A stretch of 64,000 nucleotides of DNA from Candidatus Moraniibacteriota bacterium (GTDB lineage Bacteria > Patescibacteriota > Minisyncoccia > Moranbacterales > UBA2206): contig JBAQNM010000013.1 of NCBI GenBank assembly GCA_049303795.1, forward strand, positions 78,415-142,414, given 5' to 3'. Of this stretch, positions 994 through 39,391 are shown in pieces. The translations under genes and the position numbers were made by a program. Position 1 is the stretch's first letter. The number at the start of each line of letters is the position of its first letter. The notes below the pieces were generated by a model. The model was not told where the DNA came from. It saw only the letters and a list, made by a program, of their open reading frames with translations, and made no database searches.

Positions 994-2502
994 ATGTCGA
1001 ATAAAGATAACACTGACAACAAAGAAGAAAAAAAAGTTATTAATGACAAAATCACTCCCCGTAGCGTTGATTATTCAAAATGGTACCTCGATGTTATCGC
1101 TGCCGCAGAGTTATCAGATAATTCACCGGTGAGAGGTTGTATGGTAATTCGTCCTAATGGTTATGCTATCTGGGAAAATATTCAAAAAGTTTTGGATGCC
1201 ATGATCAAAGAAACCGGAGTGGTTAATGCTTATTTTCCTTTATTTATTCCCAAAAGTTTTTTTGAAGCGGAAGCTGCACATGTAGAAGGTTTTGCAAAGG
1301 AATGTGCCATTGTAACTCATCACCGTCTCAAGAATGATGGAAACGGCAAACTGTTGCCTGATGGAGAATTAGACGAGCCGCTTATTGTGAGGCCAACTTC
1401 AGAAACAATTATCTATCATATGTATGCAAAATGGATTAATTCCCATCGAGATTTACCACTTCTGCTTAATCAATGGTGTAATGTGGTTCGTTGGGAATTA
1501 CGCACGCGTCCTTTTCTTAGAACTACAGAATTTTTATGGCAAGAGGGACACACTGCTCATGCAACAAAAGCAGAAGCTGATGAGGAAACACTTAAAATGA
1601 TTGATATTTATCGAAAATTCTCCGAAGAATATTTGGCAATGCCTGTAATTGCTGGAATGAAATCCGAATCGGAGAAATTTGCCGGTGCTGAATATACGAC
1701 AACTATTGAAGCGATGATGCAAGATGGAAAAGCACTTCAATCAGGAACTTCTCATATGTTAGGTCAAAATTTTGCTAAAGCTTTTAAAGTTAAATTTTCA
1801 GATGAGAATGGTCAGGAGCAGTTAGTTTGGCAAACAAGTTGGGGAGTGAGTACGCGCATCTTGGGCGGACTCATTATGATACATAGTGATGATAAGGGCC
1901 TTGTTCTTCCTCCAAAAATCGCTCCGACACAAGTCGTGATTATTCCAATTCGTGGTTCGGATAATAATAGTGAATTGACAACAGCCAAAGCTAACGAGTT
2001 CGCTTCAGAGCTTCGTTTGGCTGGGCACACTGTCGTTGTTGATGCTCGCGATGAAAGACCAGGAGCAAAATATTTTGAATGGGAGAGAAAAGGCATTCCG
2101 GTTCGCATTGAGGTTGGACCAAAAGATATGGCAAATAAATCAGCCATGCTTGTTCGTCGCGACACTGGTGAAAAAATGGTTGTTAATGAAGATGTTTTAG
2201 TCCAAAGTGTAAAAGACCTGTTCGAAGCAATTCAAAATAATCTTTTTGCAAAAGCGTTGGCTTTTCGTAATGAAAACACTCGCGATGTTAATTCCTATGA
2301 AGAATTTAAAGAAATTCTGGAGGCTAAAGGGGGATTTCTTAAAGCGCATTGGTGTGGTGACGCAAATTGTGAAGCTAAAATCAAAGAAGAAACTAAGGCG
2401 ACGACAAGATGTATTCCTTTCGATCAAAAGGAAGAAGATGGTCAATGTGTTTATTGTGGAAAAAAATCTTCGAAGCGAATAATTTTTGCAAAAGCGTATT
2501 AA
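994..2502 (+). CDS. proS: Prolyl-tRNA synthetase, archaeal/eukaryotic-type class II with C-terminal Zn-binding domain
   Basis: 502 aa. Class II motifs and the anticodon-binding region are present. The C-terminal [13 protein letters not shown]...CVYCG cysteine cluster is typical of ProRS of this type. Confidence 0.9.
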
Positions 2503-2538
2503 ATTTATAGTTGTATCGAAAAAATAAAATATTTTTTC

Positions 2539-2568
2539 TTGCTACTTTTTAACTTAGTATGCTATAAT
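2539..2568 (+). promoter_or_regulatory. Sigma70-like promoter (TTGCTA, 18 nt spacer, TATAAT) driving mini transcription unit 1
   Basis: -35 at 2539-2544 and a perfect -10 TATAAT at 2563-2568, read directly from the sequence. Confidence 0.5.
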
Positions 2569-2598
2569 GTTGGCGTAAGGAAAGGGGGGGACAGATAT

Positions 2599-2682
2599 AT
2601 GTTGAAATTTTCCAGAAACAATTTAACGATACTCGAAATGTGTTATCAGATAGATAGCACAGTAGTTGGTTTTTTAAATTGA
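2599..2682 (+). CDS. Mini-ORF 1 (27 aa, MLKFSRNNLTILEMCYQIDSTVVGFLN); may instead be a non-coding sRNA
   Basis: ATG lies 9 nt downstream of a G7 run (2584-2590). The ORF sits between a consensus promoter and an intrinsic terminator. It is absent from the ORF track because it is under 60 aa. Confidence 0.3.
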   Translation: MLKFSRNNLTILEMCYQIDSTVVGFLN

Positions 2683-2693
2683 ATAGTTTTCCA

Positions 2694-2720
2694 AAAAACG
2701 CTGTGTGGCGTTTTTTTTTG
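2694..2720 (+). terminator. Intrinsic terminator (AACGC-TGTGTG-GCGTT followed by T9)
   Basis: Stem-loop plus U-run at 2697-2719. Confidence 0.6.
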
Positions 2721-2761
2721 TAGTTAAAGTGGCAATAGAAAGCCATTTAAAGCGTTTTGTC

Positions 2762-2790
2762 TTGACAAAATTGATTTTATCTGCTATTAT
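2762..2790 (+). promoter_or_regulatory. Sigma70-like promoter (TTGACA, 17 nt spacer, TATTAT) driving mini transcription unit 2
   Basis: Consensus -35 at 2762-2767 and -10 at 2785-2790. Confidence 0.55.
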
Positions 2791-2833
2791 TCCAAGTCAA
2801 TTTTAATAGGCAAGCAGTGGGGGGGGTAAGATT

Positions 2834-2911
2834 ATGAAAATGCTTAAAGTAAAATTAATAGGTTCCAAATCAACAAAACCAATCGTTTCTGTTATTGAGG
2901 TTTTGATTTAA
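2834..2911 (+). CDS. Mini-ORF 2 (25 aa, MKMLKVKLIGSKSTKPIVSVIEVLI); may instead be a non-coding sRNA
   Basis: ATG lies 7 nt downstream of a G8 run (2819-2826). Flanked by a consensus promoter and a terminator, with the same architecture and transcript length (~145 nt) as unit 1. Confidence 0.3.
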   Translation: MKMLKVKLIGSKSTKPIVSVIEVLI

Positions 2912-2920
2912 ATATTTACT

Positions 2921-2945
2921 AAACCGCTTTTTTGCGGTTTTTTTA
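2921..2945 (+). terminator. Intrinsic terminator (AAACCGC-TTTTTT-GCGGTTT followed by T-run)
   Basis: Perfect 7-bp stem at 2921-2940 followed by Ts. Confidence 0.65.
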
Positions 2946-2983
2946 TTGAAATAGTATTAATTAGTTTAGGTAAATAAAATTAT

Positions 2984-4012
2984 ATGGGTTTAAAAAAATC
3001 TGATCTACTAAAAAGTGAAGTAAAGCACATTGATATCAAAAAAATTGATGCAACTAATATTGTTGAATCAATGAAGAATATGTCGTTTACTGCGAGAGAT
3101 TTAGCTAGAGGTGCTGAAATTTTCAATCAAATGTTAGAGGATAAGGACTGTGTAACAATCTTAACTTTAGCTGGAAGTTCAAGTGCAGCAGGATGTATGC
3201 AGGTCTATGTTGATATGATAAAAAATAACATGATTGATGTTGTTGTTTCAACAGGTGCCAGTATTGTAGATATGGATTTTTTTGAAGCCTTGGGTTTTAA
3301 GCATTATAAAGGAACATCAACAATTGACGATACTCTCCTGCGAGGATTGTATATTGATAGAATTTATGACACATTTATTGACGAAGATGAATTGCAAAAA
3401 TGTGATTTAGTTATTGAAGAAATTGCCAATAGTCTTGATCCAAAAGCCTATTCTTCTCGAGAATTTATTTGGGAAATGGGAAAATATCTTTCAAAGCATG
3501 CTAAAAAGAAAGATTCTTTAGTTCAGGCTGCCTATGAAAACAACGTTCCAATTTTCTGTCCAGCTTTTTCTGACTCTAGCGCTGGCTTTGGCTTAGTAGT
3601 ACATCAAGTTAAAAATCCTGATAATCATATTTCTATCGATTCAGTGAAAGATTTTAGAGAGTTGACTGAAATAAAGATAAAATCAGGAAACACCGGAATG
3701 TTTATTATTGGCGGTGGTGTTCCAAAAAATTTCACACAGGATACAATTATTTGCGCAGAAACATTAGGACATACAGTTCCTATGCATAGATATGCAGTGC
3801 AGATTACCGTAGCTGATGTTCGTGATGGAGCTTGCTCCAGTTCAACCTTGAAGGAAGCTAGTTCATGGGGCAAGGTGGGAACCGCTTTTGAGCAAATGGT
3901 TTTTGCTGAAGCGACTTCCGTTCTGCCTTTAATGGCCAGCTATGTTTACCATAAAGGAGCTTGGAAAAACAGAAAGAAGCACGAATTAGCTAAAATGTTT
4001 GAGAAAAAATAA
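2984..4012 (+). CDS. Deoxyhypusine synthase-like protein (DHS family)
   Basis: 342 aa. VPIFCPAFSDSSAG matches the IPVFSPALTDGSLG motif, GMFIIGGGVPKNF matches GMIILGGGVVKHH, and EASSWGKV matches the catalytic-lysine motif EAVSWGKI of eukaryotic and archaeal DHS. Confidence 0.8.
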   Translation: MGLKKSDLLKSEVKHIDIKKIDATNIVESMKNMSFTARDLARGAEIFNQMLEDKDCVTILTLAGSSSAAGCMQVYVDMIKNNMIDVVVSTGASIVDMDFFEALGFKHYKGTSTIDDTLLRGLYIDRIYDTFIDEDELQKCDLVIEEIANSLDPKAYSSREFIWEMGKYLSKHAKKKDSLVQAAYENNVPIFCPAFSDSSAGFGLVVHQVKNPDNHISIDSVKDFRELTEIKIKSGNTGMFIIGGGVPKNFTQDTIICAETLGHTVPMHRYAVQITVADVRDGACSSSTLKEASSWGKVGTAFEQMVFAEATSVLPLMASYVYHKGAWKNRKKHELAKMFEKK

Positions 4013-4157
4013 AGATACTTCAAATCAAGAAAAAGCTTAAAAGAAAGTCATTTTCCTTGATTTCCTAAATAGGCCAGTTTTAAGGCCTGTTTTTGTGTAC
4101 TTAAAAATATCACGACTTATCTCTTGCTTTATATAAGCCAACAATATCTTACTGTGT

Positions 4158-4186
4158 TTGACAAAAAGGCATTTTAGGTGTATAAT
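4158..4186 (+). promoter_or_regulatory. Consensus sigma70 promoter (TTGACA, 17 nt spacer, tgTATAAT) upstream of the 4256 gene
   Basis: -35 at 4158-4163 and extended -10 at 4179-4186. RBS TAGGAGGG precedes the ATG at 4256. Confidence 0.6.
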
Positions 4187-4255
4187 TAAAAATCACTTAG
4201 CATAGGGCTTTGTGGTGAGTTACTTAAAAATAAAATATTTCCATAGGAGGGTGAA

Positions 4256-5257
4256 ATGCATATTCCAATGTGGTTGCTGTTTGCATTAATTTCGCCCTTC
4301 GCCAACGCCCTGGTGAATGTCGTAGATGTGTATTTTGCAAAGGGCGTATATGAAAATGAGTGGGACGGTGCTGCGGTCAGTTGTATGTTTAAGGTTTTTG
4401 TATTGCCCGCTCTGCTCATCTGGGTAGTTTGGCAAGGGGAATCCCAAATCGTTTTGAGTCAATTTTCCGAAATTGACAAAAATCTTTTTGGACTGGCATT
4501 TATCGGAGGGATATTTTATTCTCTCTCCAGTTACTTCTATTTCCGGGCAGTGATGTCTGGAAAAGCTGATGTAGTTTTCATTGAAGCCCTGTTCAACTTA
4601 ACGGCTGTGTTTGTTCCAGTGCTAGCAGTTCTTGTACTGGGCAAAGTTTTAACGGTCAATCAATGGATTGGGGTAGTCCTGGCATGCCTAGGAGCATTCG
4701 TGCTCTATGTCAGAGCTCAGGACTTGTCGGTGGAAAATCTCATTGGAAAGAAAACAGCATCGATGATTATGGCTTCAATTTGTCTTTCAATTTGTATTGT
4801 AATTGAAAACAAAGTTTATGAAGCTGCTCCGTTCATTCCCATTTTCTGCGTATTCTCTTGTGGATGTTTTATGACCGGATGCTCGTATGCTGTTGTGCGG
4901 AAAATGAAAAAAATGCAAAGTCTGAGCGGACTTTGCCGAAGATTTTTTCTCATTTTCATTATTATGGAAACTCTAGAGCTGATTGGTGTGCTCAACCAAG
5001 AACTCGCGCTGTCGATGACGGAATCGTATCACGTCTCTACGGTGTATTGTTTCCAGCCAGTATTCGCGCTAGTAATATCCGGTATGATGCTGGTCATATT
5101 CTCAACCATCGCCTTGTTTCCGAAAAGATTTCGGAAGCTTCAGGTGAAACTGAATGGACTTGCCAAAGAAGTTCATGCAGATCAGGCAGGCAACCTTTGG
5201 GCGAAAGCTTTCGGTATCGTGGCTATAACTATAGCTGTGATATTGGTTAGCTGTTAG
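4256..5257 (+). CDS. Polytopic membrane protein (~10 TM), possible DMT/EamA-like transporter; compositionally GC-rich relative to its neighbours
   Basis: 333 aa of hydrophobic repeats. Local GC is visibly higher than the flanking genes, and a spurious 130-aa overlapping ORF (4858-5250) appears in another frame, which is typical of higher GC. Confidence 0.5.
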   Translation: MHIPMWLLFALISPFANALVNVVDVYFAKGVYENEWDGAAVSCMFKVFVLPALLIWVVWQGESQIVLSQFSEIDKNLFGLAFIGGIFYSLSSYFYFRAVMSGKADVVFIEALFNLTAVFVPVLAVLVLGKVLTVNQWIGVVLACLGAFVLYVRAQDLSVENLIGKKTASMIMASICLSICIVIENKVYEAAPFIPIFCVFSCGCFMTGCSYAVVRKMKKMQSLSGLCRRFFLIFIIMETLELIGVLNQELALSMTESYHVSTVYCFQPVFALVISGMMLVIFSTIALFPKRFRKLQVKLNGLAKEVHADQAGNLWAKAFGIVAITIAVILVSC

Positions 5258-7100: not shown

Positions 7101-7952
7101 ATGTCAATTAATATGTGCCAAATAGAAACACCTCCATTTATATTCTATTCTTATATCTCAACAATAATCCTGAGTCTTATTACCGCTTTCAGCGTTATAT
7201 ACAAAAAAATGAAGTATTCCTTAAATCGGAATGCTTTTTATTTTATTCTGATTATAGCGCTATGGACGGTTGGAGACTTGATTTTGTGGATAGCACGTTA
7301 TTCATCAATAAATCAAGTTCTTTATAGGTCATCCTATCTTATCGATTCTTTTTTTATATTTTTTCTCTATTTTGCATATGATTTCGCCGGTGAAAAATTA
7401 AGCCAGAAAAGAAAACTGATTTTTGCCTTGCCACTTTTCGTTACGATTTTTTCAGTAATTAGTGGTTATGGAATTGGGCATATGGAAAATGACACTTGTA
7501 TTTATAAACCGGGTTGGCTAATTTATTATAGTCTCCCATTTAATCTTATATATTCCATTTGGGCATCAGTCGTGCTTATAAGAAAATATAAAGATCCTAT
7601 ATTGCTTTACAGAACAAAATCACAGATTAAACCTCTAGTTTTGGCGATTATGTTTTTTGTTTTGTGGACTATCGTCTATGAAGTGATGAATATTCTCAGT
7701 GAAATGAAAAAATTAAACATAGAAATCTCATCTTACTTTGTGTTGGGCAATTTATTTTTTATTACGCTTATAATTTTTAATATCGCTGAATGTGATCTTT
7801 TCGAATTTAAACTTATTGCCAGAAAATGGTTTATATTAGTTGTTTTTTCAATTATTTTTTTTGGCATGTTTTTTCTTTCTCTTGTTCCAATGTTTTATTT
7901 GATACTACTAATATTTTATATTGTAACCGTTTGGGTTTTTTTAAAGATGTAA
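7101..7952 (+). CDS. Standalone polytopic membrane sensor-like domain, paralogous to the N-terminal domain of the histidine kinase at 8929
   Basis: 283 aa with 7-8 TM helices. ALWTVGDLILWIAR aligns with SLWSFLDLILWAQN of the HK N-terminus. No cytoplasmic output domain. Confidence 0.55.
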   Translation: MSINMCQIETPPFIFYSYISTIILSLITAFSVIYKKMKYSLNRNAFYFILIIALWTVGDLILWIARYSSINQVLYRSSYLIDSFFIFFLYFAYDFAGEKLSQKRKLIFALPLFVTIFSVISGYGIGHMENDTCIYKPGWLIYYSLPFNLIYSIWASVVLIRKYKDPILLYRTKSQIKPLVLAIMFFVLWTIVYEVMNILSEMKKLNIEISSYFVLGNLFFITLIIFNIAECDLFEFKLIARKWFILVVFSIIFFGMFFLSLVPMFYLILLIFYIVTVWVFLKM

Positions 7953-11629: not shown

Positions 11630-13774
11630 ATGCATTATTTTCGAATGGTTTCTTTGGTAATCGGTGTCGTATTGGCAATGGCGAGTAACTCTTTTGCTAT
11701 TAATGATGACCTAAGTTGGGCGGCAAAGTGGCTTTTACCAGGTGATCAGTTTGATTCAAAAGATGAGAGAGAATGGACATCTGAAAAAGGCTATATCTAT
11801 GGACACGGCAATCTCATCACTGCAAAGCTTAGATTTGATGATGAAGCAATAAACACTTTCAGGCATCAAATTGGAGGTTCGTATCATTTTGGACTCGAGC
11901 TTGACATCGTTGAATGTAGTTGCGATGGAAATAGTCCGCAACTTGTAACTGCCAGCATTCAGCATTCTCTTCCTTTATCGACCAGGCCGGTTATGGACAC
12001 AGATTTTGGTGACAGTATAACTAACAGTGGAAATTGTAAATCGAACGGAGGCGACCCATATGTTGTTGGAGCGTTAATGATTAGAGAACCTCAATATTTG
12101 GAATCCGGTGTCGATTATTACGTCTTCTACTATCTTGAAGATTGTATTCCTGCATCAGGGGTTAATTTGCATTTAACCTTAAAACTCACTCAGTATGTGC
12201 CAGTTATCAAAGCATTGTCTTATGATTTCGTATACGGCAGTATTATTAATGGGATACGTATCTATTTTGGCAATGATGATGTCTTGGATATTTTTAATTA
12301 TTTTGTTGTTGAAAGCGATTCCTATGAAAGTTTTATCGCTAAGCCTACAGGATATAATGGAACGCGCTGGTCAGATAAAGTATTAAGTACTCCATGTGTC
12401 ATTGAAGATCATGATATGTGTGTTGGGCTCGAACAAAGTCAAGTAAAAAGAACATTTTTATCCCTCATTCCATCGTTTGTTTCAATAGCATATGCAAGCG
12501 ATTGCGTACCAACTAGTACTGCTTCCAAGCAAGCTATGTATGTTGGTGATCTTGGGATTCCTGTTGACTATGATGGGACATCTCCTCCAGGCGATCCTAT
12601 AATCCCAACTCTCCCCGGCCCATTTCCCAATCTCCACATCGAAGAGCTTAATCTCCACGATTCCGCCTACAATAAACTGCCCGACGACGGTACTGCCTAT
12701 CTCAAACCCGGCGAAACATATGAAATTCATGTCTGGCCAGAATCAACTGAAGAACATTGTCTGTGCGGAACAAATAATGAAGAAATCGAAGTCATCACCG
12801 ACACTTATGTTAAAATCGGAATTTCTCAAGAAGATGGAAATTGGATGCGCATCAAACGTTCCTATACGCACTGTAAATATATGGACGAAGATGATTCCAA
12901 AAAAGAAGTTTTCTTCTGGACGGTTCCTTTTGACGCTGCCGGAAAACTAATTGCCTTCAAAGCCAAAGTCGATTCAACTAACATCATCAGAGAATCTAAC
13001 GAAGATGATAATGGTTGCGATATTGAATATTATCCGGTTGAAGGCTATTGTCCTAGTTGTCCTGATTTTGTTTCCAAAAATGTCAAACTTACTTGCGGAA
13101 AAACCGAACTAAATCTTGGTGATAAATTCGGCTTAGAGGCTGATATTTTAAATCAAGGCAGTTCCGATTGTCCTATTGATATTCACGGCGCTTATTATCT
13201 CAAAACTCCCAATGCAACCAGCTGGGTAAATATCGCTGATGATACCAGTGGAGCTTCAGGACTTAGCGTTGGAGAAATTGAACACGAATACACAACGGAC
13301 TCTCCCTTCACCGCTAATGTTATTGGCACCTGGCAAGGCATGTTCTGCGCTGACTATCAAAATCAAGTTCGCGAACAAAACGAAGACAATAATTGTCAAA
13401 CTTTCAGCTTTAAAGTTAATCCGGTCGGACCGGATTTTATTGTCTCCAGCTTAGGCTTTAAGGAAGGATTATCCTTCAAACGTAAAATCTCATCCCACCC
13501 CTGGGCCATCATTAGAAACATTGGCAATCAAACTCCCAAATCCAGTATCCGCATTGCTTATTACATCGATGGAGTCTTTCGTGATGATGACACAATCGAA
13601 GCCAGCGAACTCACTCCCGGACGCGATCAATTCGAAAGCGTTCTTAACAACAGTATCAATCTTGGTGACTGGGGCACTAGAACCCTCACTGTCAAAGTGG
13701 ACATTGATGGCAAAGTCGTTGAACTCAATGAGAGCAACAACTCCTCATCAGTTAAATTCACTGTAATTCGATAA
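11630..13774 (+). CDS. Large secreted Cys-rich protein with C-terminal CARDB-like repeats
   Basis: 714 aa. Signal peptide MHYFRMVSLVIGVVLAMASNSFA. Many Cys pairs. Three C-terminal repeats end in E.NE.NN motifs (ESNEDDNGC, REQNEDNNC, ELNESNNSS) characteristic of CARDB domains. GGAGG RBS. Patches of elevated GC. Confidence 0.6.
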   Translation: MHYFRMVSLVIGVVLAMASNSFAINDDLSWAAKWLLPGDQFDSKDEREWTSEKGYIYGHGNLITAKLRFDDEAINTFRHQIGGSYHFGLELDIVECSCDGNSPQLVTASIQHSLPLSTRPVMDTDFGDSITNSGNCKSNGGDPYVVGALMIREPQYLESGVDYYVFYYLEDCIPASGVNLHLTLKLTQYVPVIKALSYDFVYGSIINGIRIYFGNDDVLDIFNYFVVESDSYESFIAKPTGYNGTRWSDKVLSTPCVIEDHDMCVGLEQSQVKRTFLSLIPSFVSIAYASDCVPTSTASKQAMYVGDLGIPVDYDGTSPPGDPIIPTLPGPFPNLHIEELNLHDSAYNKLPDDGTAYLKPGETYEIHVWPESTEEHCLCGTNNEEIEVITDTYVKIGISQEDGNWMRIKRSYTHCKYMDEDDSKKEVFFWTVPFDAAGKLIAFKAKVDSTNIIRESNEDDNGCDIEYYPVEGYCPSCPDFVSKNVKLTCGKTELNLGDKFGLEADILNQGSSDCPIDIHGAYYLKTPNATSWVNIADDTSGASGLSVGEIEHEYTTDSPFTANVIGTWQGMFCADYQNQVREQNEDNNCQTFSFKVNPVGPDFIVSSLGFKEGLSFKRKISSHPWAIIRNIGNQTPKSSIRIAYYIDGVFRDDDTIEASELTPGRDQFESVLNNSINLGDWGTRTLTVKVDIDGKVVELNESNNSSSVKFTVIR

Positions 13775-35133: not shown

Positions 35134-35577
35134 ATGCAAATAATATTACTCCAAGATGTCAACGACCTAGGCAAAAAAGGTGATCTGAAAAATGTTTCTG
35201 ATGGCTATGCTCGCAATTTTCTGTTTGCTAAGAAATTGGCGGAAAAAGGGACTAAGGAGGCGATTGAAAAAATGAATTTAATTAGAAAAAAAGAGAAAAG
35301 TGAAGAACTGGCAAAGATGGAAAATTTAAGAAAAATAGCCGAATCACTAAAAAATAAAAACATTCAAATTAAAGCTCCTGGAAAAAACGGAAAATTATTT
35401 GGGTCAATTACGGCTAAGGATATTGTGCAGGAATTGAAAAAAGAAAATATTGAAGTTGATGATAAATCGATTGAATTGGAAGGAAAGCATATTAAGAAAA
35501 TCGGTGAACATGAAGTGCGAATTGTTTTAACGCCAGGAATCGAGTCGAAAATAAAGGTAATTATTTCAGAGGTTTAA
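35134..35577 (+). CDS. rplI: 50S ribosomal protein L9
   Basis: [30 protein letters not shown] is a classic L9 N-terminus. 147 aa. Confidence 0.85.
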
Positions 35578-38993: not shown

Positions 38994-39021
38994 ATAAATC
39001 AGCGTTAAATAACATCTTGAC

Positions 39022-39050
39022 AAATAGCACGTTTAGTGCTATTTTTATTT
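39022..39050 (+). terminator. Intrinsic terminator (ATAGCAC-GTTTA-GTGCTAT followed by T-run) after the pyrH-like gene
   Basis: 7-bp perfect stem plus Ts. Confidence 0.55.
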
Positions 39051-39133: not shown

Positions 39134-39328
39134 ATGAAATTACAAGAAGTATTAAATCTGTACCAAAAATTTTATTCCGAAGAAGCTAAGCGTTTTTATT
39201 TATCAGAGGAATTGCAAGAAGTTTATGCAAAATTCCTAAATGGCGATGCTGAAATCGACAATCTTGGATTTCTCCATGTCCGAATGTTTGGGAGTTTTAT
39301 AAAAACAAACTTCCGCATTGAAAAATAA
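39134..39328 (+). CDS. Small hypothetical protein (64 aa)
   Basis: ORF with an AGGAGG-like RBS (acggaggac) and a downstream long-stem terminator. Confidence 0.35.
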   Translation: MKLQEVLNLYQKFYSEEAKRFYLSEELQEVYAKFLNGDAEIDNLGFLHVRMFGSFIKTNFRIEK

Positions 39329-39346
39329 GCCTTTTCGGCACTTATA

Positions 39347-39391
39347 ACGGTTACGATTTATACCTTAGTATGAATCGTAGCCGTTTTTTTA
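39347..39391 (+). terminator. Intrinsic terminator (ACGGTTACGATT...AATCGTAGCCGT followed by T7)
   Basis: 12-bp stem with one G-U pair. Confidence 0.6.

Follow-up and report, generated by a model that had tools for sequence, protein, structure and literature searches.

Dual-function small RNAs (sRNAs) and small structured mRNAs are known from S. aureus (RNAIII, with the 26-aa hld open reading frame, ORF), E. coli (SgrS-SgrT) and B. subtilis (SR1-SR1P). Short ORFs are also found in the leaders of polyamine genes: E. coli speFL encodes an ornithine-sensing arrest peptide 5' of speF-potE, and eukaryotic AdoMetDC mRNAs carry an upstream ORF (uORF). Other described systems with similar parts include the classical ribosome-mediated attenuators (trpL, hisL, pheL), the 3'-untranslated-region (3'-UTR)-type sRNAs that have their own promoter and share the terminator of the upstream mRNA (DapZ, MicL), and the type I toxin-antitoxin loci and tandem small-ORF repeats (ibs/sib, ldr, zor-orz). 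A literature search on small RNAs and small proteins of Patescibacteria (candidate phyla radiation, CPR) returned nothing. Here we analyzed a 64-kb window of a Candidatus Moraniibacteriota contig ("the window" is the whole of this stretch; other loci are labelled L001, L085, L090 etc.), focusing on the spacer at 2503-2983 between proS and a deoxyhypusine-synthase (DHS)-like gene. As a preliminary description had it, this spacer is not empty, and we confirmed every promoter, G-run, ORF and terminator listed there for two small units, which we call unit 1 and unit 2. Unit 1 was found to be conserved in relatives, and belongs to an undescribed small-ORF/sRNA family of Moraniibacteriota that is absent from the curated libraries searched (the kind of element, a small ORF/sRNA gene, is already well known).

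All features discussed lie on the + strand unless stated. Unit 1 starts with promoter P1 (2539-2568; TTGCTA-18-TGcTATAAT, a TG-extended -10, from the promoter scan), followed by the homopurine leader tract GGAAAGGGGGGG (2579-2590), which holds a G7 run (2584-2590, 8 nt 5' of the ATG; seen in the sequence and by G-run search). Its ORF, taken from the ORF listing, starts with ATG, has 27 codons (2599-2682; peptide MLKFSRNNLTILEMCYQIDSTVVGFLN) and is the best-conserved block of the spacer. The ORF ends in a stop box, TAAATTGAATAGTT (2675-2688; AAT TGA, then ATAGTT; defined by sequence comparison), and the unit closes with terminator 1, AAAAAACGC-UGUGUG-GCGUUUUUU plus a T-run (2693-2720, with the stem at 2693-2716 and then T9; terminator scan), which has a folding energy of -8.8 kcal/mol.

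For unit 1, the window clade consists of three lineages: the window, L001 (DHS 97% identical to the window, dS ~0.64) and L085 (ProRS, the proS product, 95% identical); in three further assemblies of the same strain the spacer is identical to that of the window. In L001 and L085 unit 1 is found directly 3' of proS with intact promoter hexamers, ATG, stop and terminator. P1 in L001 reads TTGCCA / TGcTATTAT; the hexamers and the TG are kept in both lineages, and the promoter spacer varies. Across the three lineages, the proportion of variable columns is 27% in the spacer before P1, 17% in P1, 27–38% in the leader, 7% in the ORF, 30% in the linker, 14% in the terminator and 80% in the spacer after the terminator. 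The conserved block begins at the ATG, and the ORF (6 of 84 columns variable, 2 of 28 at each codon position) contains no indels and is open in all three lineages. By comparison, the variable share of ProRS codon positions in the same lineages is 6% for first, 3% for second and 39% for third positions, so that unit 1 third positions are more conserved than those of ProRS (P=0.0002); synonymous divergence of unit 1 is about one third of that of the neighboring genes (dS 0.55–0.71). Because only 7% of the ORF columns vary and third positions are conserved relative to ProRS, this comparison places unit 1 under purifying selection at the nucleotide level. The preliminary description had staked its functional reading on conservation in related genomes, and such conservation is found for unit 1 and, as a family, in other Moranbacteria. 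Within the clade, ORF retention (P=0.73) and the four conservative replacements (P=0.08) carry little information about coding. A 65-aa ORF on the minus strand (2549-2746) was rejected, as neither its start nor its stop is conserved, the changes in it are non-conservative and in L001 it is interrupted by a premature stop. The promoter scan gave no minus-strand promoter-like site in 2500-3000.

The RNA of unit 1 is predicted to fold with a z-score of -3.2 and into four parts: a 5' helix (GGAAAG/UUUUCC) around G-run and AUG, a long helix, a hairpin within the ORF and the terminator. The central hairpin, UGUGUUAUC-AGAUA-GAUAGCACA (2639-2661 in the predicted fold), lies within the ORF, abuts GUAGUU and has 9–11 bp; at least 9 bp at the same spot was seen in 18 of 5000 shuffles. 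Both substitutions that fall in its stem preserve pairing (U-A to U-G and U-G to U-A). L090, a lineage outside the clade, has an 8-bp hairpin at the equivalent spot that also abuts GUAGUU (36/5000 shuffles), with stems that differ from those of unit 1; in L096 the hairpin has 7 bp, and its 5' strand differs as well.

Using a covariance model of unit 1, we were able to find two matches in L090, whose contig had been found via its DHS homolog. These two copies are 94% identical to each other over 147 nt and share with unit 1 the exact 14-nt stop box and a homologous terminator (AAAACGC..GTGGCGTTTTTTTGT); copy i additionally has a promoter and an A8G5 leader like those of unit 1. The 14-nt box is thus identical in the window clade and both L090 copies, and its TTGAATA is kept in L096 and L098. 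Homologs of the EamA-family transporter led to L096 (83% identity), L098/L099 (53%) and L100 (52%), each of which has the gene order AdoMetDC-DHS-EamA, and in all of these a cassette of the same architecture is found in the ~430–580-nt spacer 5' of AdoMetDC. The cassette is made up of a sigma-70 promoter, a leader running from an A-run into a G-run, an ORF of 25–32 codons, a UGA-AUAGUU stop box and an intrinsic terminator. With an nhmmer profile of the outgroup lineages alone (L096, L090 and L098), unit 1 is recovered in the window (E=5e-5), in L085 (8e-5, nearly full length) and in L001 (3e-4). Unit 1 has the family stop box TTGAATA(G/T)T with an intrinsic terminator within 8–15 nt, and it lies in the family position, co-oriented and 41 nt 5' of the next promoter, P2. 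Scans of JGI metagenomes found no relative with the unit 1 peptide pattern, and with the DNA pattern re-found the L090 lineage only. Rfam 15 gave 0 matches in the 64 kb at gathering thresholds, and at E<=10 only sub-threshold matches on 2450-3050, which are terminator-driven noise. No tRNA or tmRNA was found in the window, and gene callers left both units uncalled in every assembly examined.

In L090 the two cassette copies (256-402 and 2288-2434) lie on either side of a 2,032-bp segment with genes for a DUF6973 protein and a protein of 151 aa; L093 has the junction 151aa-cassette-DUF6973, and its positions 1-217 and 2032-2251 are 88% identical with the same spacing. This layout indicates a tandem duplication or a recombining element with the cassette as its repeat.

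An ORF of 25–32 codons is open in every version of the cassette. When the observed number of substitutions was placed at random, a stop arose in 54–58% of simulations, and the ORF lengths (84, 93 and 99 nt) differ by multiples of 3. The outgroup peptides (30–32 aa; L096 MFAFRKNQNYEQVIFSSPVILVSDCGLNLELS, L090 MSAFRPNPNNEQIIFESPVMLVSSYGLNLVVN and L098 MQIFRKKPGQIFFGLSTMLMNSYHLNLVSN) are clearly related to one another; for two outgroup pairs the peptide similarity reaches the observed value in only 1.5% and 0.7% of trials. Between L096 and L090, pS is 0.48 and pN is 0.22 in the ORF frame (omega ~0.34–0.46), and omega is ~1 in the other two frames. The codon of Arg5 varies by lineage (CGC, CGA or AGG). 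The unit 1 peptide shares with those of the outgroups only the N-terminal MxxF[SR][RK]N and the terminal N-stop, and it does not have the family motif MxxFR[KP]..Q[IV][IF]F..S[PT]..L[VM]..LNL..[SN]. Taken together, these data fit a translated small ORF within an RNA of constrained sequence and structure.

The neighborhood of the cassette is conserved as well. P2 aligns with the promoter that precedes AdoMetDC in L096 (1321-1350), L090 (2477-2505), L098 (4333-4361) and L005 (~7548-7577), of which L005 is without a cassette; by this alignment, P2 is the ortholog of the AdoMetDC-operon promoter. The operon promoter has an unusual, conserved extended -10 (TGTGCTAGGCT, TGTGCTAGTCT or TGTGCTAAGCT; TGnTAnGCT), and the early leader after it, GTTATAAATTTAATAATT, is conserved too. 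The -10 of the window clade is now the near-consensus TATTAT. In related Moranbacteria (L005, L088, L090, L096, L098, L100 and L085 were compared) an AdoMetDC homolog is found before DHS, and it is missing in the window clade. We infer that the ancestral order was cassette, operon promoter, AdoMetDC, DHS and EamA, that the window clade lost AdoMetDC, and that L085 subsequently lost P2 and DHS. L085 has no DHS, P2 or unit 2, and there the EamA promoter comes after unit 1. By its position, unit 1 is the ortholog of the cassette in a clade without AdoMetDC. DHS of the window and L001 is still under strong purifying selection (omega 0.023); the pathway has apparently undergone rewiring and not simple decay. 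A cassette 3' of ProRS is absent in the more distant relatives L005, L086 and L087, and the cassette appears to track the polyamine/EamA cluster, not proS. We note that L087 has two tandem prolyl-tRNA synthetase genes (1941-3458 and 3686-5245).

In the window, the genes around the spacer are proS (prolyl-tRNA synthetase, ProRS; 994-2502, Pfam match), which is its upstream neighbor, the DHS-like gene (2984-4012; deoxyhypusine-synthase family, Pfam match to PF01916), which lies 3' of P2 and unit 2, and the EamA-family transporter gene (4256-5257), which is syntenic with the cassette in all lineages. Terminator 1 is the only terminator serving proS. The DHS-like protein is 72–77% identical to proteins labelled Bacteroidales, Omnitrophica, Deltaproteobacteria, Aenigmarchaeota and Nanoarchaeota, which suggests horizontal spread, and some of these proteins are named 1,9-bis(guanidino)-5-aza-nonane synthase.

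P2 (2762-2790; TTGACA-17-TGcTATTAT, again with a TG-extended -10, from the promoter scan) is the promoter of the DHS gene, so unit 2 sits within the DHS leader. A score of at least 11/12, or of 10/12 with the TG, is reached by ~14 promoter-like sites in 60 kb; P1 and P2 belong to these, and each has a terminator-like site 125–130 nt 3' of it on the same strand. The body of unit 2 (2809-2948, i.e. leader, G8 run, ORF and terminator) differs from L001 as an indel of 140 nt: L001 keeps P2 and some 20 nt at the start of the transcript, but in the pairwise alignment it lacks 2809-2948, and its P2 drives DHS via a plain ~85-nt leader. This body contains the G8 run (2819-2826, 7 nt 5' of the ATG; G-run search), an ATG-started ORF of 25 codons (2834-2911, from the ORF listing; peptide MKMLKVKLIGSKSTKPIVSVIEVLI), and terminator 2 (AAACCGC-UUUUUU-GCGGUUU plus T7; 2921-2947, stem 2921-2940; terminator scan), whose hairpin has a folding energy of -9.3 kcal/mol and which ends 37 nt 5' of the DHS start codon. 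The unit 2 peptide is unrelated to the family peptides, its stop box is looser (TTTAAATATTT), and its fold (z = +0.66) indicates no structure beyond the terminator. The best non-self match of the unit 1 covariance model is unit 2 at full length (2808-2945, 26.6 bits), and this match coincides with the indel boundaries relative to L001. Unit 2 is probably an extra, strongly diverged copy of the cassette between P2 and DHS, and would be either an old copy deleted in L001 or one acquired from elsewhere.

A recent duplication of unit 1 was rejected as the source of unit 2, as the two have no detectable identity although dS between the window and L001 is only ~0.64. We also rejected a mobile, phage or plasmid element: there were no meaningful BLASTN matches in phage and plasmid collections and none in IMG/VR, there were no terminal inverted repeats, and no other copy was found in the window or in 92 loci. 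The preliminary description spoke of a duplicated architecture. Duplication holds for the layout but not for the sequence, since neither BLASTN nor nhmmer matches one unit with the other. Unit 1 is constrained and has its own promoter; conservation of unit 2 is not supported, as it is absent from the nearest relative having DHS.

The two G-runs are the only runs of at least seven Gs on either strand of the 64 kb, and both are found in one spacer on the same strand. The preliminary description had treated them as noteworthy in a genome of ~30% GC. The window measures 33% GC, and across the family it is the position of the A/G boundary within a ~12-nt homopurine leader tract, 7–19 nt from the ATG, that shifts: the tract is GGAAAG7 in the window, GGAAAAG6 in L085 (GGAAAAGGGGGG), GGAAATG5 in L001 (GGAAA-TGGGGG), A8G5 in L090 copy i, A8G4 in L096 and A5GGAAG in L098, with only GG in L098 and L100, giving a family range of G2 to G8. 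The long G-runs of the window are the extreme of a variable A/G boundary, not a conserved feature. Nor is a G-quadruplex or slippage, both suggested for them, supported. A G-quadruplex needs four G-tracts, and within 250 nt on the same strand the only other run of at least five Gs is that of the other unit; each unit has a single G-tract, from which no intramolecular quadruplex can form. As for slippage or phase variation, the four assemblies of the strain, made independently and from different samples, all read G7 and G8 at the level of the assembly; between lineages, the run differs through A/G substitutions and one indel.

The tract may instead have a role in translation. About 50 of 60 long ORFs in the window are without a Shine-Dalgarno (SD)-like sequence in the 30 nt upstream (the SD-bearing exceptions include the EamA gene at 4256, with GGAGGG, and the gene at 11630), and because most genes of the window are SD-less, a G-rich tract 7–8 nt 5' of an ATG is unusual here. 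A purine-rich, SD-like ribosome-binding role of the tract is plausible from its composition and position. The EamA gene also has a perfect promoter (TTGACA-17-TATAAT, 4158-4186). Elsewhere in the window, -10-like boxes are found only 7–10 nt 5' of the ATG at 35134, 37877, 39393 and 27771, which suggests leaderless or very-short-leader mRNAs. An unlisted 64-codon ORF at 39136-39330 (+; MKLQEVLNLYQKFYSEEAKRF...) has a canonical GGAGG SD sequence, with a promoter-like TTGACA-17-TATTTT with TG at 39017-39045 on its 5' side and an 18-bp terminator hairpin (39346-39385) after it; it is a further small gene with a strong SD in an SD-poor genome.

Our preferred, and still tentative, reading (we would put it at somewhat below an even chance) is that the cassette acts in trans, as a structured small mRNA that is translated or as a dual-function sRNA. 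We infer two transcripts for unit 1: a ~146-nt RNA started at P1, and the proS mRNA, which would carry unit 1 at its 3' end because terminator 1 is the only proS terminator. The purine/G tract would serve as an SD-like ribosome-binding element in a mostly SD-less genome and allow the short ORF to be translated. The RNA fold (the 5' helix around the AUG, the ORF-internal hairpin and the terminator) would be under selection too, and the cassette product and/or its RNA would presumably act in trans on the neighboring polyamine/EamA functions. In the window strain, terminator 2 would additionally attenuate P2-driven transcription of DHS. We favor this reading because unit 1 keeps its own promoter and the downstream genes have theirs, and because unit 1 is strongly constrained in L085, which has no polyamine genes, with the ORF kept family-wide.

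Several observations speak against the translated, trans-acting cassette. On the coding side, unit 1 shows no codon periodicity within the clade (2/2/2), which alone would favor a non-coding RNA; outgroup substitutions are not biased to third positions; for the pair L096/L098 the observed peptide similarity is reached in 23% of trials, i.e. there is no excess; and the similarity of the unit 1 peptide to the outgroup peptides is not significant (p = 0.2–0.45). Searches of Pfam-A and NCBIfam at E<=1 gave no match for the peptides other than a chance one to S27e (E=0.22), and the peptides are too short and too polar for typical membrane peptides. On the RNA side, the ORF-internal hairpin is not kept in L098, and no compensatory double-sided changes were seen within the clade, where three sequences are too few for them. 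The family itself is known from only ~5 independent lineages. For unit 2, the covariance-model match is weak (E ~0.003–0.007, by a rough calibration), the alignment score of the 3' ends of the two units was reached in 13 of 500 shuffles, the outgroup nhmmer profile does not recover it, and it is present in one strain only.

Among the alternatives, the cassette may be a translation-coupled leader or attenuator in which the position of the ribosome, or its stalling at the UGA, 8–15 nt before the terminator stem, sets read-through; unit 2 would then be the DHS attenuator, and regulated read-through from unit 1 and its orthologs would supplement transcription from the operon promoter. We regard this as unlikely for the cassette as a whole, though it is a serious contender. 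It fits unit 2 best, where a promoter, a leader ORF, a terminator and the gene follow each other with no scanned promoter in between, and since DHS is strongly constrained (dS 0.64 and omega 0.023 between the window and L001), it must be expressed through or past terminator 2; nevertheless, a weak TTGAAA-19-TAAAAT promoter at the unit 2 junction, read from the sequence only, could drive DHS. This same-transcript layout is not found for unit 1 and the outgroup cassettes, in which the operon promoter intervenes: the cassette is always co-oriented with the promoter of the next gene and 40–110 nt 5' of it, but every ancestral cassette precedes a conserved operon promoter, which is also present in the cassette-less L005. 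Ribosome-dependent control would suit the stop codon context, which is the best-conserved nucleotide block across lineages, and the peptide, which is remodelled in the AdoMetDC-less clade and conserved among far more distant lineages that keep AdoMetDC; E. coli speFL and tnaC leaders and the uORF of eukaryotic AdoMetDC mRNA offer analogies. On the other hand, no convincing antiterminator was found (the alternative pairing has only 4–5 bp; when folded without the 3' arm, unit 2 gives a 5-bp AGUGG:CCGCU and unit 1 nothing conserved), no run of regulatory codons or repeated codon class is seen in the six peptides, and unit 1 is strongly constrained in L085, where AdoMetDC, DHS and P2 are gone and EamA has its own perfect promoter. 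A more specific version, by analogy, would make the cassette the bacterial counterpart of the polyamine-responsive uORFs of eukaryotic AdoMetDC and of E. coli speFL. The nascent peptide would sense a metabolite of the polyamine pathway, the ribosome would stall at the UGA-AUAGUU box and thereby block the intrinsic terminator next to it, with more transcription into AdoMetDC-DHS-EamA as the result, and unit 2 would be the sensor redeployed in the DHS leader after the loss of AdoMetDC; taken as a whole, from sensing and stall to terminator block and redeployment, we consider this improbable.

That the units are non-coding, trans-acting sRNAs with incidental ORFs seems doubtful, but much of the evidence from the window clade could be read this way. 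The ~93-nt block of unit 1 would be an RNA scaffold or seed, the single-stranded G-run a site for pairing or protein binding, and unit 1 a proS 3'-UTR-type sRNA with its own promoter. The uniform conservation over codon positions, the reduced synonymous divergence, the significant fold, the G-run that is predicted to be mostly unpaired (p ~0.78), and the two stem substitutions that preserve pairing while changing amino acids all suit a non-coding RNA, as do the leader, UUUCC, GUAGUU and stop box shared with L090 by a unit whose peptide is not significantly similar to those of the outgroups. Incidental ORFs are harder to reconcile with an ORF from leader to terminator that is kept in all versions despite 26–35 substitutions plus indels per pair, with length differences in multiples of 3, with an omega below 1 in the ORF frame alone and with a conserved block that begins at the ATG; the lack of an Rfam family match and of double-change covariation within the clade also weighs against this reading. 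We consider it very improbable that the spacer has no dedicated function, with terminator 1 being just that of proS, P2 just that of DHS, and the rest decayed AdoMetDC or chance ORFs. In its favor, the usual place of AdoMetDC is 3' of the operon promoter and 5' of DHS, in L005 it comes after ProRS, an AdoMetDC gene is roughly as long as the 480-nt spacer, and unit 2 is strain-specific. But when the spacers were searched by tblastn with three AdoMetDC proteins, only noise was seen, so that we rejected an AdoMetDC remnant in the spacer; the cassette is not such a remnant because it coexists with intact AdoMetDC in four lineages (L096, L090, L098 and L100); and for unit 1 the absence of function is contradicted by a conservation far above that of the neighbors' synonymous sites and the flanking spacer. 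The earlier suggestion of small proteins, leader peptides or sRNAs was a broad one, and it covers the explanations still standing. The same description had taken the DNA to be from a CPR bacterium, which is right.

The locus provides a concrete small-ORF/small-RNA cassette with evolutionary support, defined boundaries and relatives in several Moranbacteria, and synteny links the cassette to a polyamine (AdoMetDC/DHS-like) and EamA transporter cluster. The locus further shows that strong, purine-rich leaders resembling ribosome-binding sites are kept by a few small genes of a genome that is largely SD-less. Should the cassette turn out to regulate polyamine genes through coupling to translation, bacteria would have a parallel to the AdoMetDC uORF; otherwise it would be one more lineage-restricted small gene.

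As compared to the known systems, the cassette resembles each in part. Like trpL, hisL and pheL, it has a promoter, a leader ORF of ~25 codons and an intrinsic terminator soon after the stop, but it lacks both a run of cognate regulatory codons and a credible alternation of antiterminator and terminator. As in DapZ and MicL, unit 1 follows an upstream gene closely (37 nt separate P1 from the stop codon of proS) and shares that gene's only terminator; in other lineages, however, the cassette follows unrelated genes, so the link to proS is positional and secondary. Tandem small-ORF units of ~150 nt with a partly sequestered start region and duplicated copies (L090) recall type I toxin-antitoxin loci, whereas the cassette peptides are not hydrophobic transmembrane helices and have no hydrophobic stretch of ~18 or more residues. 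The similarity to speFL and the AdoMetDC uORF lies in a short conserved ORF directly 5' of, and co-oriented with, polyamine genes (here an AdoMetDC homolog), and in the ORF and terminator of unit 2 inside the DHS leader. Unlike these, the ancestral cassette is separated from the operon by a conserved promoter, its terminator is intrinsic and not Rho-dependent, there is no peptide similarity, and the cassette outlives the polyamine genes (L085). In comparison with the dual-function sRNAs, no sequence or Rfam relationship is found, and the ORF of the cassette fills almost the whole RNA; with them it shares an RNA of ~150 nt (here a predicted transcript) with its own promoter and intrinsic terminator, an ORF of 25–32 codons, and selection on nucleotide sequence and structure that appears to go beyond the needs of coding.

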